A stretch of 64,000 nt of DNA from Minisyncoccia bacterium. Its GTDB lineage: Bacteria; Patescibacteriota; Minisyncoccia; Phycocordibacterales; DATDWN01. Each line of letters opens with the position of its first letter. The first letter of the stretch is position 1. Shown piece by piece: positions 9,428 to 45,296 of the stretch. The translations under genes and the position numbers were made by a program. The stretch is taken from contig JBAQUS010000015.1 in NCBI GenBank assembly GCA_049297675.1, positions 1,414 through 65,413 on the forward strand, given 5' to 3'. A model generated the notes under the pieces. The model was not told the DNA's origin and did no database searches. It saw nothing but the letters and a program-made list of their open reading frames with translations.

Positions 9428-9450
9428 GGCCACAGGTTTACCCTGTGGCC
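9428..9450. terminator. bidirectional terminator hairpin ggccacagg-tttac-cctgtggcc
   Basis: Perfect 9-bp stem between convergent genes. The T-run is on the minus-strand side. Confidence 0.6.
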
Positions 9451-9453
9451 TGG

Positions 9454-14368: not shown

Positions 14369-14372
14369 ATAT

Positions 14373-20550: not shown

Positions 20551-20618
20551 ATTCTGTTTTGTAGGGGCATAGCTATTCTTTTCAATTTCAACTATTTGAT
20601 GTAGGGTTAAAACAATCT

Positions 20619-22416: not shown

Positions 22417-23289
22417 ATGAAAAAGCCAACTGCCAATCTACTCCTAGGTGACTGTGAAAAGATTTTATCAAAAGTAAAAGATAACAGTATTAGTCTAATC
22501 GTAACTTCACCTCCATATACCGAACGACGTTCTGATACATACGGAGGAATAAAAACAGATAAATATGTTGAGTGGTTTTTACCTAAAAGTAAGGAATTTC
22601 TTAGAGTGCTGAAACCTACAGGTACATTTATTTTAAACATTAAGGAGGCAACTGAAAATAGAGAGAAGGAATTATATGTATTGCATTTAATTCTTGAACT
22701 TAAAAAACAAGGCTGGTATTGGACAGAAGAATTTATTTGGCACAAAAAGAACTCTTTTCCTGGAAAGTGGCCTAATCGATTTCGAGATTCTTGGGAAAGA
22801 CTCCTGCAGTTCAATAAAGACCCTAATTTTAATATGTATCAAGAAGCTGTCATGGTCCCTATAGGAAAATGGGGTGACGTGAGATTAAAAAATCTTAGTG
22901 AAGCGGATAAGACTAGGACCAAGTCGAAAGTTGGAAGTGGGTTTGGAAGAATGGTGGCTAATTGGACTAATCGTGAATTAGTTTATCCGACTAACGTCCT
23001 CCATATAGCAACAGAGACAGGTAATAAAAATCACAGTGCAGTTTTTCCTCAAGCCATACCTGAATGGTTTATAAAACTTTTTACTAAGAAAGGAGATTGG
23101 GTACTAGATCCTTTTGCTGGTTCTGCTACAACGCTCAGGGTGGCCAATAAATTGGGTAGAAACTCTATTGGTATCGAAGTCCAGAAAAAATATCATAAAA
23201 TATCAAAGTCTAATTTAAAGCTTGACAGAGCCACTTTAATAACTGATACTATATCACAACCTGTCAGGAGAAAGACTCGCTTAAAATGA
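22417..23289 (+). CDS. beta-class DNA methyltransferase (N4-cytosine or N6-adenine; SPPY motif IV before motif I)
   Basis: 'LIVTSPPYTE' is motif IV. C-terminal 'VLDPFAGSATT' is motif I (the AdoMet-binding site). Confidence 0.8.
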   Translation: MKKPTANLLLGDCEKILSKVKDNSISLIVTSPPYTERRSDTYGGIKTDKYVEWFLPKSKEFLRVLKPTGTFILNIKEATENREKELYVLHLILELKKQGWYWTEEFIWHKKNSFPGKWPNRFRDSWERLLQFNKDPNFNMYQEAVMVPIGKWGDVRLKNLSEADKTRTKSKVGSGFGRMVANWTNRELVYPTNVLHIATETGNKNHSAVFPQAIPEWFIKLFTKKGDWVLDPFAGSATTLRVANKLGRNSIGIEVQKKYHKISKSNLKLDRATLITDTISQPVRRKTRLK

Positions 23290-23304
23290 TAATTATCTCA
23301 ATAT

Positions 23305-24726
23305 ATGGCTCAAATAACCAAAGATGTAGCACGTGAGATTATAGAGGATTTTGCTAGTGATATTGCTAGAGCCAAAAGTGCAGATGGTCCAAAACCTCAA
23401 AAAGAAGTAATAGATTTTAGAAATGAAAAACGGGATGGTGTTGAAAGAGTAGTGTATACCGTTCCTATTTCTCTACTTAGATTTCGTAAAGAAAATGGTA
23501 GAATCGCCTCTGACGTTTTGGCATACGAAAAAGGACACGGGGTTCTTCGTGAAGATGTGAGTGAACATCAAAAAATACTTGCAGGTTTTCTCAGAGATAA
23601 GGACCCCGATACAACGGAAATTCTTAAGAAGTCAGTTCAACAAAAAGGGCAAGAAGACCCAGCTATAATTACCGCTGATGGTTTTTTAATCAATGGTAAT
23701 CGACGTAAGCTTGTACTTGAAATGTTGTGGGAAGGATCCAGTCACGACCCTCGTTTTGAGCGTATGAAAGTAGTTATCCTGCCAGGTAAGGATGATCCTG
23801 GAGGCACTCCAACTAATAGAGAGATAGAACAAATCGAAAACCGATATCAACTCTACAAAGATGGAAAATCTGAATATTCAAATTTTGACAGAGCCCTCTC
23901 TGTTCGTAGAAAAATAGACTCTGGTATGTCTTTGGAAGAACAATTGCGGGATGATCCTGCAACTTCAGGAATAAGTGATCGTGATTTTAAAAAAGAAGTG
24001 CAACGCTATCAGGATGAGTTTCTCGGACCTCTTACTTGTGCAGATCGTTATCTGGAAGCTATAGGTCGTGAAGGAATCTACACACTCATTTCTTCTGGGA
24101 AGGGAGACAGAGAAAATAGATGGCAAGCTTTTATTGATTATTACAAGTTCTACAAACGTCTCCAAGACCCTGCGGAACGAGTAAAAGTGGGAGTTGAAGA
24201 AAAAGAGGTGGGTAAACTTGAGGCAATGGCTTTTAGCCTCATTAGATTGAGAGATTTTTCCAATCTAGGCATAAAGCTACACATGCTCATACGCAAGCTT
24301 CCCAAATATGTTGCCCATCCTTATGCCAAAAAAGAGCTTTTACAAATCAGCTCTTTAGGACACGATGTGGAAGATACTTCTAAAAAAGGTGACAGTTCTT
24401 CCCCTGAAGAACTCGATAAACGTTGGGTTAATGCAAACCAGACCGACATCAAACGCCAAGTTCATAAGGCACAAGAGATCATTGAAAGAATAGAAGTCAT
24501 GGAAACCCCTATTACACTTTTACGACAAGCTCTCGACAAGCTTACAGATGATAACATGGACCCAGCTTCGATAAAATATAATGATGTACCTGAAGCACTG
24601 AGGTTGGCTCAAGGATTAAAAGATCGAGTGGAAGAGTTGCGTAAGGAGTTCTATCAACACCAAAAAGTTGGTGAGGATTACATATCTAAGAATAATAATA
24701 AAACTCCAAAACGCAATGGAAGTTAG
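23305..24726 (+). CDS. ParB/Sulfiredoxin-fold (ParB N-terminal nuclease-like) domain protein
   Basis: 'YTVPISLLRFRKENGR' together with 'ITADGFLINGNRRKLV' matches ParB box I/II-like motifs. The C-terminal ~300 aa are unassigned. Confidence 0.55.
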   Translation: MAQITKDVAREIIEDFASDIARAKSADGPKPQKEVIDFRNEKRDGVERVVYTVPISLLRFRKENGRIASDVLAYEKGHGVLREDVSEHQKILAGFLRDKDPDTTEILKKSVQQKGQEDPAIITADGFLINGNRRKLVLEMLWEGSSHDPRFERMKVVILPGKDDPGGTPTNREIEQIENRYQLYKDGKSEYSNFDRALSVRRKIDSGMSLEEQLRDDPATSGISDRDFKKEVQRYQDEFLGPLTCADRYLEAIGREGIYTLISSGKGDRENRWQAFIDYYKFYKRLQDPAERVKVGVEEKEVGKLEAMAFSLIRLRDFSNLGIKLHMLIRKLPKYVAHPYAKKELLQISSLGHDVEDTSKKGDSSSPEELDKRWVNANQTDIKRQVHKAQEIIERIEVMETPITLLRQALDKLTDDNMDPASIKYNDVPEALRLAQGLKDRVEELRKEFYQHQKVGEDYISKNNNKTPKRNGS

Positions 24727-26593
24727 AGTAACTGATAATAGTATTTCTATTCTCTCTGCTCAAAAAACAACGACAGGGCAGATTTCTTTTTGGGGATTTA
24801 CAAAAGACAGTGAAGGAGTCTACACACTTCAGACTAACGAAGTGGCTTCAATGCTGGAAAAGGTACTTGATTTTTTTGATACAGAAAATCTAACGTATAC
24901 TCTTTCTCTTGAAGCAGAAAATATAAAAAAAGATAGAACAAAAGTCATTGTTGATTTTTCTGAAAGAAAAAAAGTACTTGAAGATTTTAAACATGGAATT
25001 TTTGATAAACAAGCGTACCAGGACTTCACTGGTTTTCTTTCCAAAAATCTAGTACGTTCACTAAAGGAACATCAAAAGAAAAGTGCTTACCATCTATATC
25101 TTGCTAGAAATGGGGCAAATTTCTCTGTTCCTGGAAGTGGAAAAACTTCTGTGGTGTTGAGTGTATTTGAAAAACTACGAGCTGAAGGAATAGTTGATAC
25201 ATTGTTTGTCATTGGACCTCCTGCTTCTTTTGGCCCATGGAGAAAGGAATTTGAAGCTACCATCGGCAGAAAACCGACCTATAGAACTCTAGCTGGAGGA
25301 GACAGACAGACTCGTTCTATCGAGTATTACCCAGATGATAAAACAAAAGCAGAACTTTATCTCACTACTTTTCAGACTGTTCTAAAAGACCAGGATGAGG
25401 TTATCCGATTCCTTTCCTCACGACACATTAATGCTTTTCTTGTAGTGGATGAGGCCCATTACATGAAGCGTTTGATTGGAAACTGGGCAAATGCTGTCAT
25501 GCGTCTTGCCTCTTCCGCATCTGTTCGTTGTGTTCTTACAGGGACACCCCTACCCAGAAGTCATACTGATATTTTTAATCTCTTTGATTTTCTGTGGCCA
25601 AATAACAAGCCTATTAGCGAGTCTCAACAACACATGATTACAGTATATGAGAAAGACCAAAAATATGACCAAATAAAACAGATACTCGACACCACAGTTG
25701 GACCACTATTCTATAGAGTCAGAAAATCAGACCTCAATTTAACCAAACCTGTTTTTCATGACCCTATTAAAATTCGCATGAATAATTATGAAAGAAAAAT
25801 ATACGATGCTATTGAAAATAAGATACGAGAAGAAAACATGCATGACGAAATACATGATTTCGAGTTGGTACTACATCTAAGGCGAGGTAGACTCATGCGT
25901 TTAAGACAAGCGTCGTCGTATATCGGATTATTAAAGAGTTCAATTGTGGGATACGAAGAAGTTTTGTATGACCCTGCTTCTGATATAGGAAAGTATATAC
26001 ATGCGTACGATGAACACGAACGTCCAGCCAAACTAGAGTATCTTCTGAATTTTTTGAAGGAATTAAAAATAAAAGGAGAAAAAATAGTCATATGGTCAAA
26101 TTTTCTTGGAACAATCGATCTCATACAAAAAACGCTCATTGCAGATGGTCTAAAAGTTAAAATAATAACTGGAGCTACTCCCGTCGAACAAATGTCTATT
26201 AGTGAGGCAGATACTAGAGAAAAGATAAGAGATGAGTTCGTTGATCCAAATAGTGGACTCGATATTTTGATAGCAAACCCTGGAGCCTGTGCGGAATCTA
26301 TTTCACTACATACCACTTGTCACCACGCACTATATTACGATTTATCTTATAACTGTGCTCAGTATCTCCAGTCGCTAGATAGAATTCATCGTGTGGGAGG
26401 GTCTGAAAAAATTCTAGCTCATTACCATTTTTTGCAGTATGATGACACAATTGACGAAGACGTTAAGTCCAGCTTGGACAGGAAAGCTAGGCAGATGTAT
26501 CAGGTCATTGATCAGGATTACGCTATTTCTTCCCTAGACATAAGTAATGAAGACGAATTAGAGGCATATGAAAGAATATTCTCTCCAAAATAG
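24713..26593 (+). CDS. SNF2-family ATPase/helicase
   Basis: Walker A 'PGSGKTS', 'LVVDEAHYMK' (DEAH box), 'VLTGTPLPRSHTDIFNLFDFL' (SNF2 motif III) and C-terminal 'QSLDRIHRVGG' (motif VI). The start overlaps the upstream stop (ATGGAAGTTAG). Confidence 0.75.
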   Translation, partial: AMEVRVTDNSISILSAQKTTTGQISFWGFTKDSEGVYTLQTNEVASMLEKVLDFFDTENLTYTLSLEAENIKKDRTKVIVDFSERKKVLEDFKHGIFDKQAYQDFTGFLSKNLVRSLKEHQKKSAYHLYLARNGANFSVPGSGKTSVVLSVFEKLRAEGIVDTLFVIGPPASFGPWRKEFEATIGRKPTYRTLAGGDRQTRSIEYYPDDKTKAELYLTTFQTVLKDQDEVIRFLSSRHINAFLVVDEAHYMKRLIGNWANAVMRLASSASVRCVLTGTPLPRSHTDIFNLFDFLWPNNKPISESQQHMITVYEKDQKYDQIKQILDTTVGPLFYRVRKSDLNLTKPVFHDPIKIRMNNYERKIYDAIENKIREENMHDEIHDFELVLHLRRGRLMRLRQASSYIGLLKSSIVGYEEVLYDPASDIGKYIHAYDEHERPAKLEYLLNFLKELKIKGEKIVIWSNFLGTIDLIQKTLIADGLKVKIITGATPVEQMSISEADTREKIRDEFVDPNSGLDILIANPGACAESISLHTTCHHALYYDLSYNCAQYLQSLDRIHRVGGSEKILAHYHFLQYDDTIDEDVKSSLDRKARQMYQVIDQDYAISSLDISNEDELEAYERIFSPK

Positions 26594-27491
26594 TGATTTT
26601 AAAAAAATATCTCTAGCCCAAATAAAAGTCTTATTTGAGGTACTAATGAACAGTCATGGTCATGATATTTCTTATGTAAAGGAGAAATACCTGAGAGGAA
26701 GTGCTTTTTTTGATGAGACTTTTCGGTTTTTGTCTGTTTTAGGCATAGTAGAAAATATAGATAAACAACTCCAACTTTCTATTCCAGCAAATATGGAAGT
26801 AGAATCAATTCTTCTAAATTCTCTTTTTAGGAAAGCTAGTAAAATATCCGCTATTGTCGATTACTTCCATAACTTTTTATTAGTGGAGGATGTGTATACT
26901 TTTAAACCACCAGTACAGAAAAATTTACAGACCAGCGGAGTTCGCAATCTCCTATTGGAATTGGATATTATTGAACACGATATAAGTACTGGAAATTATA
27001 TTGTAAGTAAAAAGGGAACACCATATTTGAAATCTTTTTTATACCGCACTTCCGTTTTGGAGTTTGAAGAAATCCTTAGAAAACGAGATAAACTAGGACT
27101 TAAGGCAGAATTAGCTGTTCTTGCATATGAGCACAAGAAACTAAGTAAATATCCTGGATTGGCAAAACAAATTGTTCATGTTTCTCGCTCTGATGTCGGA
27201 GCCGGGTATGATATTCAGAGTTTTACTTATGCCGATGGAGCGCCAACACTAAAATATATTGAAGTTAAGGCTGTTTCAGCAAATGATTTTAGTTTCTTTT
27301 GGTCAATTAACGAGATCGAGGTTGCAAAATGGTATAGGCAACAATACTACTTATATTTGGTACCAATATCAAAGGGTGGAAAAATTAACATGCAGAAGTT
27401 GAAGATAATTTCAGACCCATATGATTATATTTATAAGGATGAAAAAAATAGAGATCTTGAGTCCGTACTTTTTCATGTTTCACCAAAATAG
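26568..27491 (+). CDS. hypothetical protein with a C-terminal PD-(D/E)xK nuclease-like (DUF3883-like) domain
   Basis: 'ELAVLAYEHKK...GAGYDIQSF...YIEVKAV...FWSINEIEVA' carries D...ExK catalytic-type motifs. The start is uncertain (an alternative Met lies at 26646). Confidence 0.5.
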   Translation: MKEYSLQNSDFKKISLAQIKVLFEVLMNSHGHDISYVKEKYLRGSAFFDETFRFLSVLGIVENIDKQLQLSIPANMEVESILLNSLFRKASKISAIVDYFHNFLLVEDVYTFKPPVQKNLQTSGVRNLLLELDIIEHDISTGNYIVSKKGTPYLKSFLYRTSVLEFEEILRKRDKLGLKAELAVLAYEHKKLSKYPGLAKQIVHVSRSDVGAGYDIQSFTYADGAPTLKYIEVKAVSANDFSFFWSINEIEVAKWYRQQYYLYLVPISKGGKINMQKLKIISDPYDYIYKDEKNRDLESVLFHVSPK

Positions 27492-27494
27492 TTT

Positions 27495-28247
27495 ATGTCC
27501 GAATATCACAACGCACAAAGAACACGAGGAATGTACGACTCAAAGTCGGAGGAGCCATTCAAACTATCTCGGTCCAAAATAGATCTCTTTTTGCAGTGTC
27601 CTCGTTGTTTCTACTACGACAGAAAGTTAGGTGTAGGTCGCCCTCCAGGATTCCCATTTGCTATCAACTCAGCAGTGGACCACTTACTAAAGCAGGAATT
27701 CGATATCCACCGTGCAAATGGAACTAAACATCCACTGATTGAAAAATACAATGTTGACGCTAAACCAATCGCACACGAGGATTTGGATAAGTGGCGTCAC
27801 AACTTCACAGGTATTCAGTACCTGCACGAATTAACCAACCTACTCATAACAGGAGCAATAGACGATCTTTGGCAGAATTCAAAAGGAGAATACATAATTG
27901 TTGATTATAAAGCCACGTCAAAAGACGAAGAAATAACGGAACTAAACAAAGACTGGCAGAAGGGCTACAAGCGACAGATGGAAATTTACCAATGGCTACT
28001 ACGTCAGAACGGCTACAAAGTATCTAACACTGGCTACTTCGTATATTGCAATGGCAAAACAGATAGAGAAGTCTTTGATGCAAAAATAGAATTCGACATT
28101 ACACTTATCCCATACGAAGGAGATGATTCATGGGTAGAGAAAACTATCATCCAAGCTCATAAGTGTCTCTGTGGTGACAAGATACCTGATGCTGACTCAG
28201 AATGTGATTATTGTAGCTATGTGACAGCTCTCTCAAAATATAAATAA
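27495..28247 (+). CDS. Cas4-like / RecB-family PD-(D/E)xK nuclease with Fe-S cluster cysteines
   Basis: N-terminal 'CPRCFYY'. 'D...IIVDYKATS'. C-terminal 'CLCGD...CDYCSY' gives a Cas4-type 4-Cys arrangement. Confidence 0.6.
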   Translation: MSEYHNAQRTRGMYDSKSEEPFKLSRSKIDLFLQCPRCFYYDRKLGVGRPPGFPFAINSAVDHLLKQEFDIHRANGTKHPLIEKYNVDAKPIAHEDLDKWRHNFTGIQYLHELTNLLITGAIDDLWQNSKGEYIIVDYKATSKDEEITELNKDWQKGYKRQMEIYQWLLRQNGYKVSNTGYFVYCNGKTDREVFDAKIEFDITLIPYEGDDSWVEKTIIQAHKCLCGDKIPDADSECDYCSYVTALSKYK

Positions 28248-28351: not shown

Positions 28352-28903
28352 TCAGCTATTCATGGCCTTCTTGAGCTTCTCTGCTTCCTCTAGTTCCTGG
28401 ATCAGCCCTAACTGAGCATATTGTCCCAGCCAGTGCATAAATCGCTTACTGTACTGGCCTTTATAGAAGATACGATTCATGCTTTCCCGAATGGCCATAA
28501 GCTTTATAATTCGACTTTGTTTATAGAGAAATTGCCCGTGCTTGCTATGACGGTTTATCCTAGTTGAAGCATATTGAAGTCTGTGACACTTACGACAGGC
28601 AAATACTCCGTTACTGAGATATAGAGCGTTCGTCCTACTCCCACAACCACAAGTTAGGTATGAACGGGTCCCAAAAGTCAGTTCTTGCTCCGATAATTCA
28701 AAACGTTGTGATTCTAGGGCAAAAGTAACAACAAGATACGCTTTTTCGTCTTCATGTTCTATGTAGTAGTCAGCAACGGACGGTTTGTTGTTATGTACTA
28801 TATTCAAATATCCTTCCACAGATTCCTTCTTGCGGGTTTTACGGAGATCTTTTTTGAGTAAATGTGTAGTCAGTGCAAACGAATTTTCTATCAATGCTCC
28901 CAT
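28352..28903 (-). CDS. hypothetical protein with a CxC...CxxC zinc ribbon
   Basis: 183 aa. 'TCGCGS...CRKCH'. Confidence 0.45.
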   Translation of the reverse strand: MGALIENSFALTTHLLKKDLRKTRKKESVEGYLNIVHNNKPSVADYYIEHEDEKAYLVVTFALESQRFELSEQELTFGTRSYLTCGCGSRTNALYLSNGVFACRKCHRLQYASTRINRHSKHGQFLYKQSRIIKLMAIRESMNRIFYKGQYSKRFMHWLGQYAQLGLIQELEEAEKLKKAMNS

Positions 28904-28929
28904 TACTACATTTTACTATAGTACTACAA

Positions 28930-29088
28930 TTACCCTTCCGTATTTATTGTGAGAGCTTTGTACCAACAATAAAGGAAAGCTATATAAAAAATCCATTCAA
29001 TTCCATCTCCACCGCCAACTCGATCTCTAACTGCAATTCCGCCTAGAACCAATATTATACCGAGAATAAATAAGACTGTTGATGACAT
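28930..29088 (-). CDS. possible small hydrophobic membrane protein (52 aa), not in the ORF track
   Basis: Manual translation of the minus strand: MSSTVLFILGIILVLGGIAVRDRVGGGDGIEWIFYIAFLYCWYKALTINTEG. It starts 12 nt after the stop of the upstream gene. Confidence 0.3.
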   Translation of the reverse strand: MSSTVLFILGIILVLGGIAVRDRVGGGDGIEWIFYIAFLYCWYKALTINTEG

Positions 29089-29099
29089 ATTTTTTTATA

Positions 29100-29939
29100 T
29101 TAAAACCAAAACCACGATTTAATTTTTGACCATAGGCTTTTAGGTTGAACTTGGGTTATAGGAACAGAGGAGGTAGCTGCTAGATTGTCTTCTGGAGGAA
29201 CTACATTTGATATTTCAGGATCATTTTTAACAGAAAGATTTTCTTTTACCTCTACTTCTTTCTTGATTACAGGAGCCACTACTTTCACCTGCTCTTTCTG
29301 TCTTGCTTCAACCGCATTTTGCCAAGTGGTGTAACACTCCTCCTCTGACATGACTCCAAAATATGTCATTTTCGAGAACACAGGTTTATTACACGCCACG
29401 TTTCCAGACTTATTACCGTTCGGAATTTCCTGTGTTTGTACTTTCGGTACAATTGCTGGGGGAGACACACCAACTTTTTGCGGCTTCCCAATACAACTGG
29501 TCCTATCGCTATTCCATTGATAGTTGGACGGACAATCACAAGTCAAACCGCCGTTAGAGTTATTCTGCCCCGCATATTTACTGTTAGGAAAAGAAAGATT
29601 ACATGACTGATCGTAGGTGTAACAATTATCTCCCTTTTGAACATAACCACTCTGACAAGTAACTGGATGGTTAGTACGAACGTTACTAGGATAACGAGCT
29701 TCTAGTTGTTGTTGTAATAGTTGTTGTTGAAGTTTTTGCTGTTGAAGAAATATTGCTTGCAGTTGAGTTTGTCTCTGTAACTCATCAATTCTGGCACCAG
29801 GTTCTGGGACAATTTCTATCTGTAATGGATTAAGTACGGAACCTGGATAAATGGTTCCATAGGCATGAACGAAAGCAATAGGAACAAACACTATCAAAAG
29901 AAATAACACAAAGAAACTCTTTGGAGTTTTATATTTCAT
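29100..29939 (-). CDS. secreted Cys-rich, Gln-rich hypothetical protein
   Basis: Signal peptide from the internal Met (MKYKTPKSFFVLFLLIVFVPIAFVHA). A QQQKLQQQLLQQQ tract. 12+ Cys residues. Confidence 0.5.
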   Translation of the reverse strand: MKYKTPKSFFVLFLLIVFVPIAFVHAYGTIYPGSVLNPLQIEIVPEPGARIDELQRQTQLQAIFLQQQKLQQQLLQQQLEARYPSNVRTNHPVTCQSGYVQKGDNCYTYDQSCNLSFPNSKYAGQNNSNGGLTCDCPSNYQWNSDRTSCIGKPQKVGVSPPAIVPKVQTQEIPNGNKSGNVACNKPVFSKMTYFGVMSEEECYTTWQNAVEARQKEQVKVVAPVIKKEVEVKENLSVKNDPEISNVVPPEDNLAATSSVPITQVQPKSLWSKIKSWFWF

Positions 29940-30452
29940 GTTTCGCGTGGGTTTTAACCTGATAATAAGTCTCGTGTACCAAAAATGGCCACACAAGACC
30001 AGCGATAACTTCTTTCGAAATTACCCCATATCCTTTCGGATATGGACCCACGCGAGTAAGTGCGGCTTATGTGGCCGTTTTTAATCGCGTGGGATTTCTT
30101 ATGATCCATGCTAGAAACTGCTTATCAGCTTCTAGTTTAGGTATGTACAGATATAATACACCTTGAAACAGATATCGTAAATCACCGAAAAAGCCTTAGA
30201 ATTTTTAGAAATTTTTTAATCATTTCATTTTTCAAATCCAAAACTTTTCCAATACAACCCTCCAGATCTAGGAGGTTACGTTTCCTCCACAAGCCACATA
30301 TTCTGGGTCCTGTGATCCCGACCACTGCCCGGGTACTCATCCAGATACATCCAGTAACAAACATTAGCACTATATAGGTAGCAGAATAATTTAATAACTT
30401 CTGCCAAGCACGAGCTAGTCTCTCGTGTTTTTATTTTATTCACAAACTAAAC

Positions 30453-30764
30453 ATGAAACATATCAAGGAGATCGTAACTAACCCAGTCATATCGCCCTAT
30501 CGTGGCTCTGAAGCTACATATGAGATGGTACGTGAGCAACTGCGTGAGAAATATGGTGATGAGTGTGCAGATGAGTTTAACCCGCATACTGACGCAATGC
30601 CCTTCGTATCATGGGCTTCTTTCGGTTATCGAATTAAACCCCAAGAACGTGCATTCAAATCGGTAACATACGTGGAAGTCAAAAATGACAAAGGTGAGGT
30701 TGAGAGAAAAATCCGTCGTGTCGTCAATCTCTTCCACAAAAACCAAGTAACGAAAGTCAGGTGA
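30453..30764 (+). CDS. hypothetical protein (element-associated)
   Basis: 103-aa ORF. Confidence 0.4.
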   Translation: MKHIKEIVTNPVISPYRGSEATYEMVREQLREKYGDECADEFNPHTDAMPFVSWASFGYRIKPQERAFKSVTYVEVKNDKGEVERKIRRVVNLFHKNQVTKVR

Positions 30765-30789
30765 TTTATTCAACTAAATAACTAACATT

Positions 30790-31359
30790 ATGAACACAAC
30801 ATATAAACAACACATAGTCTCACCATTCCAAGTGAAGAAAAAAACTTACGATATAAGTGGCAAGGATCACCCAGTCCAAGAGGAAATCAGAAAGAACCTT
30901 GGCGAACTTCACTTAACAGCTGTGTTTGAAGAAGACACACAGACATTACAGGCATTCAGACATGTGAGTGGTGTCATAGCTTTTCTTTGTACACTGAAGA
31001 AGGATGATCAGATTATAGGATTTGGCAGAGGTGTGTCTGTCGTTACCAAGCTCAATCGGTATGTAGAGAGAACTGTTAGCTTTGCTCAAAACTCAGCTTT
31101 GATTGATTCTGTGGTAAGAGCAACCAAGATGCTTGATGCCTTGCATTTGAGCTCAAGTGGGCAACAAAACACTGTCATAACCAAAGACAATGAAGACTTC
31201 TCTCCCATAACAACTAAGCAGAAGAACTATTTGCTGAAATTACTTCAAACGACAAACATTATTAACCAGAACAGCCGTGATCAAATGGAAGACGAGATTG
31301 ACGGAATGAGCAAGGAGGAAGCGGCAGAGAAAATCAGTTTTCTCATAGAGTCGAGATAG
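30790..31359 (+). CDS. hypothetical protein (element-associated)
   Basis: 189-aa ORF. Confidence 0.4.
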   Translation: MNTTYKQHIVSPFQVKKKTYDISGKDHPVQEEIRKNLGELHLTAVFEEDTQTLQAFRHVSGVIAFLCTLKKDDQIIGFGRGVSVVTKLNRYVERTVSFAQNSALIDSVVRATKMLDALHLSSSGQQNTVITKDNEDFSPITTKQKNYLLKLLQTTNIINQNSRDQMEDEIDGMSKEEAAEKISFLIESR

Positions 31360-31382
31360 ATTACTAAAAATAATACAAAAAC

Positions 31383-31625
31383 ATGATTAACACAGTAGCA
31401 ATCGGTGAGTACGAAAGCCCAAAAGGAAACTATGGCTATCCTTTAGACTATGTGGGAGAGGAGAAAATGATAGACGAACGTCAGAGACTTATCCTAACAA
31501 ATCTCATATTTGAAAAGATACATGACGAGGGCGAGAGAGAATCTTGGCTATCTCAAGTGAGTTGTATGACGTCTGATGATGCAGAGAGTGCAATCTTTTC
31601 ATTCCTGACTTCACAGTGGCAGTAA
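31383..31625 (+). CDS. hypothetical small protein
   Basis: 80-aa ORF with a terminator downstream. Confidence 0.4.
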   Translation: MINTVAIGEYESPKGNYGYPLDYVGEEKMIDERQRLILTNLIFEKIHDEGERESWLSQVSCMTSDDAESAIFSFLTSQWQ

Positions 31626-31636
31626 TAGATACACAA

Positions 31637-31667
31637 GAAGCGTATTCCTCGGAGTACGCTTTTTTTG
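31637..31667 (+). terminator. rho-independent terminator (aagcgtattcctcggagtacgct + T7)
   Basis: Long stem followed by 7 T. Confidence 0.65.
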
Positions 31668-32113
31668 TGATATTTCTTTTCTATCCCGTAATTCAACATA
31701 ATTATCAAGAGAACTCCATTTACAATTTATATTTTTTGTTATCTGGTGGTGTAATTATCCCCAAACCACTTGTTTTAAAACTTTTTCCATGCCTATTGTA
31801 AGCTCTTTTTTACATTCTACGTTCAAGAATAAGGATTTTTTATAAATACAAATCTATGGAACTAATCAGATAGTGCTAAAAATAGGCCTAAGAATATGAG
31901 AATCAAATAATTGGTACTGGAATAAGCTAAGTACTAGGTTAGCTGATAGGTCTTTTTGATCAGATAACAAAATATGAAATAGAAAAAACAAAATTATAAG
32001 GGGGAATCTACTAGAAAAAGTCCGTTTATAGCTGTGCAAGGTCCCTATTCTAGTAGAACCTTCATAGCTCTAAGTGGATTTTTTATTTATCAAAATTAAA
32101 CACGAACACTATT

Positions 32114-34363
32114 ATGGAAAACATAAAAACGAATTTGGAATGGGCACTGTACTACCGAAGTATAGGATGGAGTCCATTTCCTGTAGTAAAAGGCGGAAAG
32201 GTACCGTCGATCGAATGGAAAAAATATCAAAATGAAATTGCGTCTGAGGAAGAAATTAACAACTGGTGGAAACAAAATCCTGAAGCAAACATAGGCATAG
32301 CAACAGGGCTGGTATCGGGTGTAATTGTTCTTGATATAGATTCAAAGCACAATAGAACGTCAAAGGAATTTCAAATTCCTCCTACCATTTGTGCTAAAAC
32401 GGGAGGACTTGGCGAACACATCCTATTTAAACACCCAGGCGGACATGTAAAAAGCACAAACGGTCAACTTTTCGGTTCCGGAGTTGATTTAAAGGCAGAC
32501 GGTGGGTATGTCGTACTCACTCCCTCATTGCACGAAAGTGGTAATCGATATGAGTGGATTATTGGACCTGATGAGACAGAACTAGCAGAGGTTCCTATAT
32601 GGCTACGCGCCGCTTTAGAGGGGCAGGATAAAAATGCAGATGCAAAACTCTGGCAAAAAGGAGCAAGCGGAGTCTCAGAAGGTAATAGGAATGAAACTGC
32701 TGCATCAGTCGCTGGTAAACTCCGCAGCTCTCTTCCTAAGGAATTAGTAGAAGACGGATGGGAAAATCTGATTGCGTGGAATAAAAAGAATCCCGAGCCA
32801 TTACCCGAAGAAGAACTTAAAAGAGTTTGGGATAGTGTCAAAAAATATGATTCAGAGGAAGAGGCACCAGCAAAAGAGTCACCCGCAACCAAATTGTTGA
32901 AACTTATTCGGGAAAGGAAGGATGTAACAATTTTTCGTGACTTTCACGGTGATGCTTTTATTGCACTTGAAATAGAAGGAGTACGTCAAGTATGGTCCTG
33001 TAAAAGTGATCAGTTCCAACATTGGCTTTCACTCTTATACTTTCATACTTACAAGACTGTCCTACCGTCAGATGCGAAAACGGGTGTAGTAGGTACTATC
33101 AAGGGTTTCGCGACGTTTGAAAAGGAGGTCATACATCTCCAGTCTAGAAACGCTTACTTTGGCGATGAGCTTTGGTACGACATGACAAATGATAAGTGGC
33201 AGGCAATCAAAGTGACTCAAGCAGGATGGGAGTTAGTGGATAAGCCACCTATACTATTTCGTCGTTATTCTCACAACAAAGCGCAAGTAATGCCTCTCGC
33301 GGGAGGTGATGCGAGGTTACTTCTAAAATACTTCAACATTTCTGACCCACAGCAACAACTTCTTATACTCATTCACATCATCTCTGCCTTTATTCCGGGG
33401 TTCGCACATCCAATATTAGTAATAAACGGTCCTCAAGGATCAGCAAAATCAACTTTTTCTCGTATTTTACGTCTCATAATTGATCCATCCATTATGGAAG
33501 TTGCTTCCATGCCAGATACTCATAGGGAGCTGGTCCAGACACTAGCGCACAACTCATTTATCTTTTTTGATAATGTTTCGTGGATTTCAGAGACCGTCTC
33601 AGATATTTTATGTAAAGCTGTAACCGGAAGTAGTTTTCCAAAAAGAGAACTCTACAGCGATGATGACGATGTTATCTACACTTTTATGAGAACTATCGGC
33701 ATTAACGGTATCAGTATGTTCCTGGCTAGACCTGATCTTTTGGAACGAAGTATTATCCTAAAACTCGATAGGATTGATTCTAAAAATAGAAAACTAGAAA
33801 AAAGTCTTATGACAGAATTTGAACATGATTTACCAAGTATACTCGGAGGCATTTTCGATGTATTGGTAAAAACACTCGCACTTAAACCTACTATAGAGCA
33901 GGAAAATCTCCCCCGCATGGCAGATTTTGCTTTGTGGGGATGTGCAGTAGCAGAAGCTTTAGGTGTAACACAGAAAGAGTTTATGGATTCGTACAATACA
34001 AATATTGCTCTCCAGACCGACATCGTAATTAACGAAAATCTTATTGCTTCTACTATCATTTCGTTCATGCAAGACCAAGAAAGGGATGAATGGGTTGGAA
34101 CTGCTACTGGTCTACTTCACAGCTTAGGAGAATTCGCGAAGAGTCATTCTGTTGATGTTCACGATAAGCAGTGGCCAAAAGCACACAATGTATTATCCCG
34201 TAGGTTAAATGAACTCAAAATCAACTTTTTGGAAGCTGGATGGGACATCTCGATTGACGGAGGTCAAGTGCGAAAAATCACTATTCGCTGGATTGGAAAG
34301 AAGCCGAATGTTCCAATTCCAAACACTTTAACAAGGTCAGAAGAAGATTTTAAAAATTTCTAA
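32114..34363 (+). CDS. bifunctional primase-polymerase (Prim-Pol N-domain) with a C-terminal P4-type primase/helicase-like P-loop domain
   Basis: 'GWSPFPVVKGGKVPSIEWKKYQ...ANIGIATGLVSGVIVLDIDS' is the Prim-Pol motif. 'VINGPQGSAKSTFSRIL' is the Walker A. Confidence 0.7.
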   Translation: MENIKTNLEWALYYRSIGWSPFPVVKGGKVPSIEWKKYQNEIASEEEINNWWKQNPEANIGIATGLVSGVIVLDIDSKHNRTSKEFQIPPTICAKTGGLGEHILFKHPGGHVKSTNGQLFGSGVDLKADGGYVVLTPSLHESGNRYEWIIGPDETELAEVPIWLRAALEGQDKNADAKLWQKGASGVSEGNRNETAASVAGKLRSSLPKELVEDGWENLIAWNKKNPEPLPEEELKRVWDSVKKYDSEEEAPAKESPATKLLKLIRERKDVTIFRDFHGDAFIALEIEGVRQVWSCKSDQFQHWLSLLYFHTYKTVLPSDAKTGVVGTIKGFATFEKEVIHLQSRNAYFGDELWYDMTNDKWQAIKVTQAGWELVDKPPILFRRYSHNKAQVMPLAGGDARLLLKYFNISDPQQQLLILIHIISAFIPGFAHPILVINGPQGSAKSTFSRILRLIIDPSIMEVASMPDTHRELVQTLAHNSFIFFDNVSWISETVSDILCKAVTGSSFPKRELYSDDDDVIYTFMRTIGINGISMFLARPDLLERSIILKLDRIDSKNRKLEKSLMTEFEHDLPSILGGIFDVLVKTLALKPTIEQENLPRMADFALWGCAVAEALGVTQKEFMDSYNTNIALQTDIVINENLIASTIISFMQDQERDEWVGTATGLLHSLGEFAKSHSVDVHDKQWPKAHNVLSRRLNELKINFLEAGWDISIDGGQVRKITIRWIGKKPNVPIPNTLTRSEEDFKNF

Positions 34364-34369
34364 AACAAT

Positions 34370-34639
34370 ATGAAAGAAGAAAATAAAAACTATATGGACG
34401 GTTCGGATAGAGGAGTGTTGCACGTCCTTTGTGTTGACACAATGGATATCAAAGCAAGGGTGACTTTTAACTCAGAGGTGGTCCAAGGAGTTTATGTGAC
34501 CTACTGGGCAGAAGATACTGAAGTTGCCGAAAAACAATTAGATAAAATCTTTAGCATTTTTTTTGAAGAAGTACTTAAAACTAGAGGTATGAATGAGAAC
34601 AGCAGGGAAAAAAGCCAAATTATTATCAATAATATATAA
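34370..34639 (+). CDS. hypothetical small protein
   Basis: 89-aa ORF tightly packed between the primase and the recombinase. Confidence 0.4.
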   Translation: MKEENKNYMDGSDRGVLHVLCVDTMDIKARVTFNSEVVQGVYVTYWAEDTEVAEKQLDKIFSIFFEEVLKTRGMNENSREKSQIIINNI

Positions 34640-34647
34640 TTAAAAAC

Positions 34648-36312
34648 ATGGAAGACAAACCACAAAAAGAAATCAAATTCATAGCGGTATACGCTCGAGT
34701 TTCAACTTCAAATCAGGAGGATCAAAAAACGATTGATGCCCAACTTTCAGAGGTAAGGGAATTTGCTGAAAAAAATAAATACATTATTGTCAAAACTTAC
34801 AAGGATGAGGGCTGGAGTGGGGATATTTTAGCTCGACCTGAGCTTGATCAGTTACGTCATGATGCACGAAGTAAAATGTGGGACGCTGTGCTTGTATATG
34901 ACCCCGATAGACTTGGTCGTCAGCTTCTTTTCCAACAAATAGTCATTGATGAATTAAAGAAACTAGAAATTGAAATTCTATTTGTAACTATGCCTCCAGT
35001 AAAAAATGCGAGTGACAAACTCTTGTTTGGTGTTCGTGGGTTATTTGCTGAATATGAAAAAGCAAAGATAACTGAACGTTTTAGAATTGGAAAAGTAAAT
35101 CGTGTGAAGAATGGTTACGTTTTAACCTCAGAAGCACCATATGGCTATACCTATGTTCTCAACAAAGGAAAACGTGGTAGTGCAGACTACATCGTTGGAC
35201 ATTACGAAATAAATGAACGTGAAGCTAAAATTATAAAACAAATATTTTCTTGGGTTGGCGATGAAGGGATGACACTCCGTGGTGTTGTCAGGAGATTACA
35301 AGGACTTGGTATTCAACCACGAAAAAGCAAAAGGGGTGTTTGGAATACAAGTACACTCAGCACACTTCTAAAACACGAGGTGTTTATCGGTACTGCATAT
35401 TGGGGAGTATCATACGCAGTCATTCCTGACAGACAATCTACTACAACTCGATATAAAAATACAGAAAAGACAAGTAGAAGGATAAGGCCAAAAAAAGAAT
35501 GGTATCCAATATCAGTTTCCGCTATTATAGAAAAAGATCTATTTGAACGTACTACACTTCGGCTACAGAAGAACTTTCAGACACTAGGCAGAAACACGGT
35601 AAATGAATATCTTTTGGCAGGTAGAATTTGGTGTGTTTGTGGTGGAAGAAGGGCTGGTGAAGGCGTACAGAAAGGTAAACATCTATATTATCGTTGTACT
35701 AATCGGGTTCACACATTTCCATTACCTCCTACATGTGCAGAAGGTAGTATTAACGCAAGGATTGCAGATGATATCGTATGGCAAAGGGTCAAGGAAACCC
35801 TGAGTTCACCAAAATTACTACGAGAACAAATTGAACGATGGCGCAAGGATGAAAATAGAAGCATCAAACAAGGAGTAACGATTGAGATCAATAGTACCAA
35901 GAGAGAAATTGCTAAATTACAAACTCAAGAAGATCGTTTCGCCAGCGCCTATTCAAAAGAGATTATTACTCTTGAAAAATTTGAAGAGTACGCAACTCCT
36001 ATTCGAACAAAAATCCGTGAACTTGAAAATCAGATATACCTAGCTGGTCTAGAAGAGACACCGAAAAATGATGTACCATTACCAAATGAAGATGAGGTTG
36101 AAGCTTTTGCTGAAGAATCCTTAAAAAAGCTCCAAAACTTGAATTTTCCGACAAAACAAGCCATTATTAGGCAGTCAATCGATAAAGTACTCGTTACTAC
36201 GAATGAATTACAAGTCTACGGTCTCATTAATCTAAATATAATCCATGTCGTCTTCCGCTCTGAGCATAGGTATTGTCGGTCTGCCGAACGTCGGGAAGTC
36301 GACGCTTTTTAA
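34648..36312 (+). CDS. large serine recombinase (integrase)
   Basis: Resolvase N-domain 'IAVYARVSTSNQ...DEGWSG...VLVYDPDRLGR', followed by the recombinase domain, a Cys-rich zinc ribbon (CVCGGRR...CTNRVH...C) and a coiled coil. The 3' end overlaps ychF by 68 nt. Confidence 0.8.
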   Translation: MEDKPQKEIKFIAVYARVSTSNQEDQKTIDAQLSEVREFAEKNKYIIVKTYKDEGWSGDILARPELDQLRHDARSKMWDAVLVYDPDRLGRQLLFQQIVIDELKKLEIEILFVTMPPVKNASDKLLFGVRGLFAEYEKAKITERFRIGKVNRVKNGYVLTSEAPYGYTYVLNKGKRGSADYIVGHYEINEREAKIIKQIFSWVGDEGMTLRGVVRRLQGLGIQPRKSKRGVWNTSTLSTLLKHEVFIGTAYWGVSYAVIPDRQSTTTRYKNTEKTSRRIRPKKEWYPISVSAIIEKDLFERTTLRLQKNFQTLGRNTVNEYLLAGRIWCVCGGRRAGEGVQKGKHLYYRCTNRVHTFPLPPTCAEGSINARIADDIVWQRVKETLSSPKLLREQIERWRKDENRSIKQGVTIEINSTKREIAKLQTQEDRFASAYSKEIITLEKFEEYATPIRTKIRELENQIYLAGLEETPKNDVPLPNEDEVEAFAEESLKKLQNLNFPTKQAIIRQSIDKVLVTTNELQVYGLINLNIIHVVFRSEHRYCRSAERREVDAF

Positions 36313-37294
36313 TGCACTGACAAAAAAATCAGTACCGGCGGAGAATTATCCTTTTTGTACTATTGACCCATCGGTTGGGATTGTTCCTGTACCAGATGAA
36401 AGATTGTGGAAACTTTCAGAACTTAGTAAATCGAAAAAGACTATACCGGCCGTTGTAGAGTTTGTTGATATAGCCGGGCTTGTAAAGGGTGCCTCTTTAG
36501 GTGAGGGATTGGGCAACAAATTTCTCTCAAACATTCGCGAGGTAGATGCAATTCTGGAGATGGTCAGAGTTTTCAAAGACGACGATATAATCCACGTTCA
36601 CGGAAAGATTGACCCTCTTGGAGACATTGGGGTGATAAATCTTGAACTTGTTTTAGCTGATGAAGAAACTGTTACTAAGCGTTTACAAAATTTACAAAAG
36701 GATGTTAAAGCTGGTAGGAAGGAAGCTGTTTTGGAGGAGAGTGTGTTGAAAAAAGTTTTAGAAGTTTTGAAACGCGGAGAGTTAGTCAACACCATTAACC
36801 TAAACGAAGATGAGAGAAAGGTTGTAAAAGGAATGCATTTACTAACAGCAAAACCGATTTTGTATTGTCTTAACTCATCAGAAGCAAGTTCTGAAAATGT
36901 TTTGGAGATTAAAGATAGAATTCCAGGAAACTACGTTGAAGTAGATCCAGTATTCGGCTATTTTAATTGGTCTGACCGATTGGATGATCGTCGAGACCGG
37001 GGCTTTGACGCTCTAATAAAAAAAAGTTACGAGACTCTTAACCTTATTACTTATTTTACAACTGGCGAGGATGAAACTCGGGCTTGGACTATAGGAAAAG
37101 GTTGGAATGCACCCACGGCTGGGACAGCCATACACAACGATTTCAAAGATAAGTTCATCCGTGCAGAAGTTGTTCACTGTGACGATCTTTTAGTTTCTGG
37201 TTCATATGCTGTGGCTCGGGAGAAAGGATTAGTCAGAACAGAAGGGAAGGAGTATTTAGTCAAAGATGGTGATGTGGTTGAATTCAGGATTTAA
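36245..37294 (+). CDS. ychF: ribosome-binding ATPase YchF (Obg-like)
   Basis: 'IGIVGLPNVGKSTLFNALT', a G4 motif and a C-terminal TGS domain ('DFIRAEVV...'). 349 aa. Confidence 0.85.
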   Translation: MSSSALSIGIVGLPNVGKSTLFNALTKKSVPAENYPFCTIDPSVGIVPVPDERLWKLSELSKSKKTIPAVVEFVDIAGLVKGASLGEGLGNKFLSNIREVDAILEMVRVFKDDDIIHVHGKIDPLGDIGVINLELVLADEETVTKRLQNLQKDVKAGRKEAVLEESVLKKVLEVLKRGELVNTINLNEDERKVVKGMHLLTAKPILYCLNSSEASSENVLEIKDRIPGNYVEVDPVFGYFNWSDRLDDRRDRGFDALIKKSYETLNLITYFTTGEDETRAWTIGKGWNAPTAGTAIHNDFKDKFIRAEVVHCDDLLVSGSYAVAREKGLVRTEGKEYLVKDGDVVEFRI

Positions 37295-37353
37295 GGCAAG
37301 ATTACTTGACAAAAGTCAAATAATTTGCTAGAAAAATGCGCAGGAGGAGTTCT

Positions 37354-37623
37354 ATGGAGATTCAGGTTCGTGTTAGAGAAGGAGTCTTTGTTGCCACATT
37401 CACTGGAAGGACAGACATCATGTCCGAGGTAACAGGCCATGGGCGTGATCCTAACTCAGCAGTTGGCGATCTTTGCCGGCTGTCGGGGCTTGTAGTGGTG
37501 GAAGTCATCGAAGACAACACTCCGCTCGGAGATAATATTCCCGGACTTCAAGATATTCGCAGGCGAGAGGAGGAGGAATCGAGACAACAAAAATTGGAGG
37601 AACTAGAGCTGACAACAGCCTAG
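37354..37623 (+). CDS. hypothetical small protein in a GC-rich islet
   Basis: AGGAGG sits 6 nt upstream of the ATG at 37354. A strong hairpin lies downstream at 37626-37667. GC ~50%. Confidence 0.4.
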   Translation: MEIQVRVREGVFVATFTGRTDIMSEVTGHGRDPNSAVGDLCRLSGLVVVEVIEDNTPLGDNIPGLQDIRRREEEESRQQKLEELELTTA

Positions 37624-44261: not shown

Positions 44262-45296
44262 ATGAAAGATCATATGGAAGAAAAAAAAGAAGAACGAAGA
44301 ACATTTCTTCATGAGCAGTACCTTAGATCTAGACTTTTTCTGTCCACTCTTACTGACAGTCAAAGAAAATCTGTGATATTTTTTTTAATTATTATTATAT
44401 TTGGAATTACTTATTTATATCTTTACTCACCGCCTAGTAATTTTCCGGTCGGAAAAGTCTTTTCAATACATTCAGGTGAGTCATTAGGTAACATTGCCAA
44501 AAGTCTTTCAGAAAAAAAGGTCATTAAATCTTCCTTTGTTTTTCAAAGTCATGTTATTTCGCTCGGTGGAGAAAAAAGAGTTATTGCGGGGGACTATTTA
44601 CTTGATGTGGTGGAGGGACCAGTAGATCTTGCCTTCAGAATGGTCAATGGAGATTTCCATTTAAATCCAAAACGAATTACTGTACCAGAAGGTTGGAGTA
44701 TATTTGAAATTTCAGATTATTTAGAAAAAAATCTTATTGATTTCAATGAGAAAAGTTTTCTTCTACTATCCAACTCGCGTGAGGGTTATCTTTTTCCAGA
44801 TACTTATTTTGTATTGCCGACTGCCAAACCGGAGGAAATAATTGAGAAAATGACAGAAACTTTTTTTGAAAAAGTACCAACTGTTTCTGGTTTCTCAACC
44901 ACTACGTATAAGATAAAGGATGTGATAATAATGGCATCTATTCTTGAGAGAGAGGCAATTACCATGGAATCAAGAAGAATCATAAGTGGAATACTCTGGA
45001 GGAGAATTAAGCTCGGCATGCCCCTTCAAGTTGATGCAAGTTTCTCATATGTTAATGGTAAAAACACTTATGAGTTGACTTTGGATGATTTGAAAATTGA
45101 TTCTCCTTACAATACTTATTTATACAAAGGCCTTCCACCTGGACCAATAGGTAACCCAGGTCTTAATTCTATTTTTGCTGCCATTCATCCAACTCCTACA
45201 AAGTATCTTTATTTTCTAACAGGCAAGAACGGAGAAATGTACTACGCTAAAACGTTTGAAGAGCACAAAAAAAATAAGGAAAAGTATCTAAGATAA
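44262..45296 (+). CDS. mltG: MltG/YceG-family endolytic transglycosylase (second paralog)
   Basis: 'YNTYLYKGLPPGPIGNPGLNSIFAAIHP' is the YceG signature. N-terminal TM segment. Confidence 0.75.
   Translation: MKDHMEEKKEERRTFLHEQYLRSRLFLSTLTDSQRKSVIFFLIIIIFGITYLYLYSPPSNFPVGKVFSIHSGESLGNIAKSLSEKKVIKSSFVFQSHVISLGGEKRVIAGDYLLDVVEGPVDLAFRMVNGDFHLNPKRITVPEGWSIFEISDYLEKNLIDFNEKSFLLLSNSREGYLFPDTYFVLPTAKPEEIIEKMTETFFEKVPTVSGFSTTTYKIKDVIIMASILEREAITMESRRIISGILWRRIKLGMPLQVDASFSYVNGKNTYELTLDDLKIDSPYNTYLYKGLPPGPIGNPGLNSIFAAIHPTPTKYLYFLTGKNGEMYYAKTFEEHKKNKEKYLR

Follow-up and report, generated by a model that had tools for sequence, protein, structure and literature searches.

A 26.1-kb integrative plasmid-like element in the ychF gene of a Minisyncoccia bacterium, probably inserted by its own large serine recombinase

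Introduction

Why does the reading frame of a large serine recombinase run into the start of ychF in a Minisyncoccia bacterium, and how far does the DNA that accompanies it extend? The question arises from a 64,000-nucleotide stretch of contig JBAQUS010000015.1 (assembly GCA_049297675.1, positions 1,414 to 65,413, forward strand), which is called the window here and to which all positions refer unless another locus is named. A preliminary description of this DNA proposed that an element had integrated into the 5' end of ychF, that the overlap of the two genes is its right junction (attR), and that its left boundary lies either at about 30.0–30.1 kb or within the gap at 22.13–22.42 kb. The analysis presented here indicates that positions 10156–36270 (26,115 bp) are very probably a 26.1-kb integrative plasmid-like element of Minisyncoccia (Patescibacteria, or candidate phyla radiation, CPR) that entered the 5' end of ychF, an essential-type GTPase gene, by means of a large serine recombinase of its own. 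NCBI protein names put the window in Minisyncoccia, phylum Minisyncoccota. Mobile elements of Patescibacteria are poorly characterized and few genetic tools are available for these bacteria.

The right junction and the hybrid ychF gene

The recombinase open reading frame (ORF; 34648–36312, plus strand, 554 amino acids, aa) overlaps the first 68 nt of ychF (36245–37294, plus strand, 349 aa; MMR_HSR1 and YchF-GTPase_C by Pfam) in a different frame, as had been stated earlier and as the ORFs and domain matches confirm. The ATG at 36245 is the sole start that keeps the P-loop, since the ychF frame is already closed by a stop two codons upstream. The gene is a hybrid of eight element-derived codons and, from the P-loop onward, host codons. 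Its element-derived part is the P arm of attR (36245–36268, plus strand), which reads ATG TCG TCT TCC GCT CTG AGC ATA in the sequence and encodes MSSSALSI in place of the reconstructed native start MSKLAI; the proposal that the element supplied a substitute N-terminus thus holds for the first eight codons. The central dinucleotide GG follows (36269–36270, plus strand) and forms the first two bases of the first glycine codon in the P-loop motif GIVGLPNVGKS. Because the crossover falls at this codon, the host half-site (B') is highly constrained coding DNA for GIVGLPNVGKS. The P arm brings a new Met-Ser start in the ychF frame, so the target gene stays intact after insertion. The P-arm DNA has a triple role: it provides recombinase codons, it is the predicted binding arm of the recombinase, and it is the substitute start of ychF.

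The recombinase has in turn acquired its end from the host. Residues 1–541 are encoded by the element, and the last 13 residues, YCRSAERREVDAF, are the ychF codons for GIVGLPNVGKSTLFN read out of frame, with a stop that arises from TTT-AAT. Among 5.8 billion proteins searched, this recombinase had 1,236 relatives, of which the best 120 homolog clusters (52–68% identical) were inspected: 113 end in an out-of-frame ychF tail (e.g., ..YRNCRSAKCGEVHAF) and seven in a native tail. Some tails of the ychF type are shorter where host codons give an earlier stop. To judge from a 13-residue tail made of P-loop codons that recurs in 113 of 120 clusters, the overlap is far above chance. At the very end of the integrated recombinase ORF, within ychF, the P-loop coding DNA at 36289–36304 forms a small GC-rich hairpin followed by CTTTTT (CGTCGGGAAGTCGACG), which scores as terminator-like.

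The left junction and the empty site

The seven native recombinase tails of homologs were used as tblastn queries and match the window at 10123–10257 (plus strand; E 3e-9 to 8e-9 for P0027, P0056, and P0117). The sequence there reads ATG TCA AAG CTA GCA ATC GG/T ATG GAG AGA ACA. Its first part (10136–10155, plus strand) is the leftover native 5' end of ychF and the B arm of the left junction (attL), from which MSKLAI-G can be read directly. The central GG lies at 10154–10155 (plus strand), and GGTAT (10154–10158) is common to attL and attR. Immediately to the right is the orphaned 3' end of the recombinase gene (10156–10296, plus strand), which is composed of the P' arm, 46 codons for YGENTRQHGNTAIPFEFKVKIPSPMKTGVDYGFKKGEKWIFRKVSE (10156–10293), and a stop. 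With the recombinase ending in out-of-frame ychF on the right and an orphan tail beside a ychF remnant on the left, the overlap is attR, as had been proposed. No second ychF fragment with a P-loop could be detected, because the remnant ends before that motif. Direct and inverted repeats at 20–37.5 kb that might serve as att repeats gave chance-level matches only; serine-integrase junctions have only a few bases in common.

Both ancestral sequences can be rebuilt from these junctions. Joining the DNA left of attL to that right of 36269/70 yields MSKLAIGIVGLPNVGKST, a normal CPR YchF N-terminus, and joining the recombinase to 10156 onward yields a 587-aa protein with a native tail. The predicted attB junction contains GCTAGCAATCGGTATTGTCGGTCTGCC / ATGTCAAAGCTAGCAATCGGTATTGTCGGTCTGCCGAACG and the predicted attP junction contains GCTCTGAGCATAGGTATGGAGAGAACAC / CCGCTCTGAGCATAGGTATGGAGAGAACACAAGACAAC. 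The reconstructed attP is CATGTCGTCTTCCGCTCTGAGCATA-GG-TATGGAGAGAACACAAGACAACACGG, with arms that mirror each other around GG; it is an imperfect 24–26-nt palindrome (ATGTC...GG...GACAT) that lies inside the 3' part of the recombinase ORF. When every one of the window's 3,113 GG positions was scored for dyad symmetry in an unbiased scan, 10154 emerged as the best partner of the attR P arm, with 18 of 26 matches (mean 6.6, sd 2.2; z about 5). Short att sites, a central dinucleotide, imperfect inverted repeats, and hybrid attL and attR sites are all present at the level of sequence, which is the pattern of a serine-integrase insertion.

A relative that lacks the insertion completes this picture. 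In locus L013 (GCA_049298975.1, Minisyncoccia; YchF 83% identical) the site is empty, and the window's gene order is matched as far as DUF5715 on the left and again from ychF on the right; L013 has the order VanW-IMS-SurA_N-YceG-DUF5715-(three genes)-ychF-Cupin-DUF5671-leuS. DNA homology between the window and L013 ends at 9395 and resumes at 36263, and synteny breaks at about 9.4–10.1 kb. The preliminary description had named two observations that would speak against integration. One was the same recombinase–ychF overlap in related genomes with no empty site; the overlap is indeed common, because the whole recombinase family targets ychF, yet the empty site exists in L013. The other was a recombinase C-terminus that ends naturally before 36245, and this is not the case: the natural C-terminus continues for 46 codons that now lie at attL.

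Integrated and free forms of the recombinase family

A first contig scan with a single recombinase recovered only eight loci, and the flanks were too short for attL in L002 and L004. In all, the recombinase ORF runs into ychF at 32 loci (the window, L002–L006, and 26 metagenome contigs), with recombinase identities down to 33–38%. ATGTC occurs exactly 24 nt left of GG in nearly all of these integrated loci, where it gives ychF its substitute Met-Ser start; its mirror image, GACAT, stands on the P' arm of loci in attP form. Eight loci have the attP form, that is, an uninterrupted gene with a native tail (L010, L011, L018, L021, L029, L030, L038, and L042), and none of them has ychF downstream. 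Their recombinase ORFs contain a GG-centred palindromic attP with 9–18 matches of 26 (13–18 in seven of the eight; the random expectation is about 6.5). The ends of the 7,419-bp contig L042 overlap by 105 bp, so that it is a circle of about 7.3 kb. As to the circular excised form that had been suggested as a check, relatives provide the eight attP-form loci, among them the circular L042; none was found for the window copy in viral contigs.

A second complete integrated element, 10.7 kb in size, occurs in L025. It has the ychF remnant MSLSIGIVG, its own attR, and an orphan tail that is recognized by a hidden Markov model (HMM) built without L025 (E 5.6e-16); its cargo is a Type III restriction-modification system. 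Recombinase genes beside ychF in L034 (4154–4510) and L045 (4168–5412) have early stops or are truncated, and these two are apparently decayed, immobilized element copies.

Two attP-form loci lie in long contigs. L038 (10010–11785; contig Ga0209935_1000008, 1.53 Mb) and L018 (10001–11692; a 64-kb contig) have a native tail and an intact palindromic attP; their recombinases adjoin genes of the TrwB/TraG-like kind and very large ORFs (about 1,710 aa), and L018 also has a group II intron. These loci may be large plasmids, elements integrated by another route, or misassemblies. Five of the eight attP-form loci have a gene for a TrwB/TraG-like coupling protein of about 400 aa (L011 5764–6936, L029 7776–8975, L030 2495–3703, L018 ~5600–6760, and L038 ~8540–9680), and it is absent from all integrated loci, as judged from the whole 26-kb window element and, elsewhere, from up to 10 kb on either side of the recombinase match.

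The recombinase and its exchanged C-terminus

The integrated 554-aa protein has Resolvase (PF00239; E 4.7e-31, residues 12–156), Recombinase (PF07508), and Zn_ribbon_recom (PF13408) domains. Residues Y15, R17, V18, and S19 are invariant in sets of 30 and of 40 homologs, and the zinc-ribbon cysteines C329, C331, C350, and C363 are invariant among homologs. Its best NCBIfam similarity is to CcrB, far below the cut-off. By every feature that can be read from a sequence this is a large serine recombinase, and attP × attB catalysis is predicted for it.

With attP situated in its coding sequence, the recombinase loses a conserved tail of 46 aa upon insertion and receives 13 out-of-frame residues instead; the free form of the enzyme has 587 aa and the conserved native tail (IPFxFxIKxPxPxKxGVDYGF), and the integrated form has 554 aa and ends in ychF-derived residues. 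In the seven homolog clusters that retain it, the native tail has the consensus ..RHGxNTxRH...IPFxFxIKLPPPLKxGVDYGF. The orphan tails of the window and L025 have 18 of 26 residues in common, 11 of them by different codons, and the conserved part lies 40–100 bp beyond the core, outside a typical half-site. Because common residues use different codons, selection on the tail protein is suggested, and the tail looks conserved as protein and not merely as a DNA-binding site, as far as the single window–L025 pair indicates.

Structure prediction gives this tail a place in the fold. The AlphaFold2 model of the native-form homolog P0027 (mean predicted local distance difference test score, pLDDT, 77.9) matches full-length SPbeta, phiC31, Bxb1, and LI integrases (9dxd, 9rah, 9iu2, and 4kis) at only 15–18% identity and includes long helices at 370–472 (an inserted coiled coil). 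Crossover residue R538 lies in a disordered linker (537–548), beyond which a β-strand at 550–559 (pLDDT about 82) follows two strands at 509–527. More distant recombinases of the sampled loci also end with a ..KFEIxVxV strand. If the model is correct, integration removes a conserved terminal structural element and puts unconstrained residues in its place, which could alter function.

A life cycle can be proposed on this basis. The 587-aa enzyme encoded by the circle would carry out attP × attB integration at the ychF P-loop codons. The resident 554-aa form might be altered in activity, in a way that stabilizes the insertion or changes directionality, and excision would rebuild the recombinase gene. 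A Prim-Pol replicase encoded by the element would maintain or replicate the circle, and a small ORF upstream of the recombinase and/or the LOOT RNA (both described below) would regulate the switch. It is a tentative possibility, to be held with some doubt, that the exchange of the C-terminus is a directionality or commitment switch, in which the 587-aa form, made from the circle only, integrates, the 554-aa form differs in att preference or activity, and the LOOT RNA and small ORF decide exit. If true, a serine integrase would here be under a control that it encodes itself and that depends on DNA topology.

Gene content of the element

The left part of the element is cargo for surface proteins (10442–22127, plus strand), with products of 1308 aa (transglutaminase core and SLT lytic transglycosylase), 282 aa (FG-GAP-like), 1809 aa (Ig-domain), and 502 aa (DKNYY) as assigned by Pfam; the 1308-aa and 1809-aa products are two giant secreted or surface proteins. 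A defence-like module follows (22417–28247, plus strand; Pfam and PADLOC), with an N6/N4 DNA methylase, a 473-aa ORF of unknown function, a SNF2 helicase (ZorD/DpdE-like), a NOV_C nuclease-like protein, and a Cas4-like PD-(D/E)XK nuclease. The earlier suggestion that this methyltransferase/nuclease module is cargo agrees with its position within the att-bounded 26.1 kb, together with the two giant surface-protein genes. The 473-aa ORF, SNF2 helicase, and PD-(D/E)XK nuclease have homologs in two other elements, L017 and L019. Besides these three genes, only the part at 28.3–36.3 kb recurs in other elements.

That recurrent part begins with leftward genes (28352–29996, minus strand), which comprise a 183-aa ORF with homologs in L004, L023, and L036 and an ORF for a 298-aa secreted Cys-rich protein. 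Three small ORFs follow (30453–31625, plus strand; 103, 189, and 80 aa; homologs in L002, L004, L017, and L023). Neither these ORFs nor the one at 34370–34639 have a Pfam, PHROG, or NCBIfam match, so that several small orphan genes do lie upstream of the recombinase, as first described. The repeat-rich non-coding DNA that was described with them did not withstand scrutiny: Tandem Repeats Finder detects only two trivial two-copy arrays, both inside ORFs, and a repeat-pair search gave chance-level results.

The Prim-Pol/PriCT_1 primase-polymerase (32114–34363, plus strand; 749 aa; Pfam) has a C-terminal Walker-A NTPase (GPQGSAKST at residue 439), homologs in L015, L019, L026, L035, L045, and L049, and is presumed to be the replicase of the excised circle. 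The earlier identification of a Prim-Pol/P4-type primase stands with respect to Prim-Pol and Walker A but not to P4: NCBIfam gives no match and thus no P4-family primase C-terminal domain, and only the Pfam Prim-Pol and PriCT_1 models apply. Directly upstream of the recombinase is an 89-aa ORF (34370–34639, plus strand) that is conserved in L002, L003, L004, L014, and L015. HMMER places it with 37 small-protein clusters in a 1.84-billion-protein library; a word-index search matched only the ORF itself. AlphaFold2 predicts a β-hairpin and helices (pLDDT 71), and Foldseek found nothing below E = 1 for this model in the PDB. Its position alone makes it a candidate accessory or directionality factor. 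Small ORFs occupy the place directly upstream of the recombinase, where a directionality factor would be expected, in about 35 loci (e.g., window 34370–34639; L025 9802–9978) and belong to two mutually exclusive families, one with the C-terminal motif AFDxLFEEVxK (the 89-aa type) and one that is HTH_17 excisionase-like (Pfam E 1e-12 to 1e-15).

LOOT RNA is reportedly a family that was first described from metagenomes without a known organism or function. The element encodes a copy at 30004–30143 on the minus strand (Rfam RF03000; 59.8 bits against a gathering score of 46.4; model positions 1–121 of 121). LOOT occurs in the same place and orientation in seven other elements at 70–86 bits (L002 7646–7767, L004 7983–8110, L017 5491–5613, L019 5440–5556, L024 4660–4772, L026 5750–5875, and L033 4214–4335, all minus relative to the recombinase). 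It always lies 1.6–5.2 kb upstream of the recombinase, at the junction of divergent gene sets and directly 5' of the first leftward ORF, and the adjoining leftward ORFs are mutually non-homologous. No LOOT was found in the attP-form loci examined. These calls rest on Rfam scores, since the MAFFT alignment of the eight copies is too poor at an insertion in the window copy for covariation counts. The Rfam entry classifies LOOT as a small RNA (sRNA) gene only; the family can now be assigned a specific genomic location in CPR bacteria, within recombinase elements that target ychF.

Several genes outside the element complete the locus. Two YceG-like (MltG) genes flank it (8311–9171, minus strand, and 44262–45296, plus strand), and both are also in L013. 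In L013 a Y1 transposase gene (11069–11728) lies between ychF and cupin, where the window has a 95-aa orphan ORF (37336–37623). An IS200-like Y1 transposase gene (295–969, plus strand) sits beside tRNA-Ala (129–202), the only tRNA gene in the window, and an ORF with ATP-cone and Mrr-type restriction endonuclease catalytic domains (48701–49534, plus strand) lies among housekeeping genes.

Alternative explanations

The nature and extent of the element were weighed against several other readings. The preliminary description saw no capsid or terminase genes and favoured an integrative plasmid-like element over a recognizable prophage; both points hold, as neither PHROGs nor Pfam finds phage structural genes. 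It is very unlikely that the element is a temperate CPR phage with structural genes too divergent to recognize. Phages typically integrate by large serine recombinases, a lysin-like SLT domain with weak similarity to PHROG endolysins (E 2.8e-4) occurs in the 1308-aa protein, and CPR phage proteins are poorly covered by profile libraries. Yet no terminase, portal, capsid, or tail protein was matched among 10 element ORFs in PHROGs, where the only hits were weak lysin-like matches to that domain, the closest relative of the recombinase among 2.9 million IMG/VR contigs is only 35% identical, family members are as small as 7.3 kb, and several free forms have plasmid or conjugative traits, namely TrwB/TraG-like coupling proteins and ArdC. 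An element of the integrative and conjugative type (ICE) is not indicated either: no relaxase, coupling protein, or mating-pore ATPase was found in the window element (by Pfam, and for coupling proteins also by tblastn with the TrwB/TraG-like proteins of relatives), and the SLT-domain wall hydrolase that is present does not alone define an ICE. The TrwB/TraG-like genes are confined to some of the attP-form relatives. The element is best described as integrative and plasmid-like, with defence and surface cargo. A different proposal is that the recombinase and ychF are a fixed, domesticated pair, or an ORF-calling artefact, that is no longer mobile. The same overlap occurs in dozens of genomes, the L034 and L045 copies have decayed through early stops, and no excised form of the window copy was found in viral contigs, a point that also weighs on the interpretation preferred here. 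This proposal is nonetheless highly improbable given that L013 has an empty site and that an intact attP is seen in free or circular forms, and given cargo that differs completely between copies, an intact orphan tail with synonymous turnover, and full-length recombinase ORFs in 113 clusters.

The extent of the element depends on its left end. That it is small, starting at 30.0 kb (a size of about 6.3 kb) or at 22.1–22.4 kb (about 14 kb), is scarcely tenable, although the core genes common to related elements all lie within 28.3–36.3 kb and a contig of another assembly begins at 30134. Nothing att-like is present at either place that had been put forward as the left boundary, and the LOOT gene occupies 30.0–30.14 kb. 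It is at 10.15 kb that the remnant of ychF, the orphaned tail of the recombinase, and the P arm's best dyad partner occur together, and the break in synteny with L013 is near there and not at 22 or 30 kb; the 6–14 kb implied earlier thus gives way to 26.1 kb, with attL at 10154–10155. The contig in question (JBAQRY010000034.1, L001), from a second public assembly of the same sequence, starts 10 nt inside the 5' end of LOOT; this is probably an assembly break at a sequence common to co-occurring elements and not an element end, and the position was rejected as a left end as it falls inside the LOOT gene. Locus L012 (Logan) has the identical integrated sequence. It is also unlikely, if less easily dismissed, that the region is a composite island in which an ~8-kb recombinase element (28.3–36.3 kb) and a separate later island (10.4–28.2 kb) in or beside it do not form one functional element of 26 kb. 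In its favour, the giant-protein genes lack counterparts in the other elements and, in tetranucleotide usage, correlate least with the remainder of the window (0.865), and the family is heterogeneous in size (7.3 to >10 kb) and strongly so in cargo. Against it, attL with the recombinase's own tail lies left of all cargo, so that the full 26 kb would leave in any excision that this recombinase performs; moreover, homologs of the defence module (473-aa ORF, SNF2, and PD-(D/E)XK) exist in L017 and L019, and no second integrase, transposase, or repeat pair is seen inside.

Other observations sit less comfortably with a single 26.1-kb mobile element. The cargo at 10.4–22.1 kb has no homologs in the other sampled elements and may be a later insertion into the element. 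Composition offers no contrast with the host: G+C content is 0.379 in the element and 0.388 and 0.366 in the flanks, in a window that is low in G+C overall (about 0.38), and tetranucleotide profiles differ little, so the GC and k-mer profiling that had been proposed does not detect the ends. The exact attP junction has no match in viral contigs, and native-tail copies in very long contigs (L038 and L018) are not explained by a simple free-circle picture. Scanning the 3' end of the recombinase gene for a sigma-70-like promoter that could serve the hybrid ychF gave no convincing candidate. The crossover is placed at GG on the basis of dyad symmetry, with GGTAT as the limit of resolution.

Relation to known systems and implications

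The recombinase resembles those of phiC31, Bxb1, A118/LI, TP901-1, SPbeta (SprA), and SCCmec (CcrB) in its catalytic Resolvase domain with an invariant serine, Recombinase domain, four-cysteine zinc ribbon, and inserted coiled coil. As in phage and element serine integrases, a short palindromic attP surrounds a non-palindromic dinucleotide and a less symmetric attB lies inside a conserved gene. It differs from known serine integrases in the location of attP within the recombinase ORF, about 46 codons from its end, and in its Patescibacteria host and ychF P-loop target. No report of a serine integrase with attP in its own ORF, or of ychF P-loop targeting in CPR bacteria, was found in the searchable literature, which is incomplete and does not prove absence. 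Archaeal integrases of the SSV1 type, which are tyrosine-type, likewise have attP within the integrase gene.

Partial parallels exist elsewhere. In myxophage Mx8, attP lies inside the integrase coding sequence and recombination gives the gene a new 3' end (IntP/IntX), a change reported to alter the properties of the integrase without inactivating it (PMC6070905). The Mx8 enzyme is a tyrosine recombinase with an unrelated fold and chemistry, whereas the enzyme described here is a serine recombinase in which the replaced segment is a predicted terminal β-strand. SXT/prfC and dusA elements insert in the first codons of a conserved housekeeping gene and restore the frame with an element-encoded N-terminus; they use tyrosine integrases and occur in Proteobacteria (PMC8409611). 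Unlike in those elements, the substitute start codon here belongs to the arm that the recombinase would bind, where it also lies within the recombinase's reading frame. In the pneumococcal prophage group PPH005, ychF is immediately downstream of the integrase and a defective prophage reportedly influences ychF expression; attB is intergenic (DUF951/ychF), and the element is a real prophage listed among those with tyrosine integrases (PMC8637289). The genes overlap here, unlike in PPH005, and there is no relation between PPH005 and the window recombinase family. Serine recombinases and their att sites have been surveyed on a large scale in genomes of isolates (10.1101/2021.11.05.467528), an approach that would largely miss uncultured CPR bacteria.

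The interest of this locus lies not in the mere presence of an integrated element but in a family-wide self-splitting recombinase gene, a P-loop target, and an association with LOOT. An orphan RNA family gains a genomic context. With attP inside the recombinase ORF, every integration rewrites the enzyme, as is documented for the Mx8 tyrosine integrase. A compact attB in the highly conserved YchF P-loop motif means that one recombinase family can colonize very divergent hosts. The junctions give a base-by-base definition of a widespread integrative-element family in Patescibacteria, and they provide candidate integrases and landing sites for engineering these bacteria.

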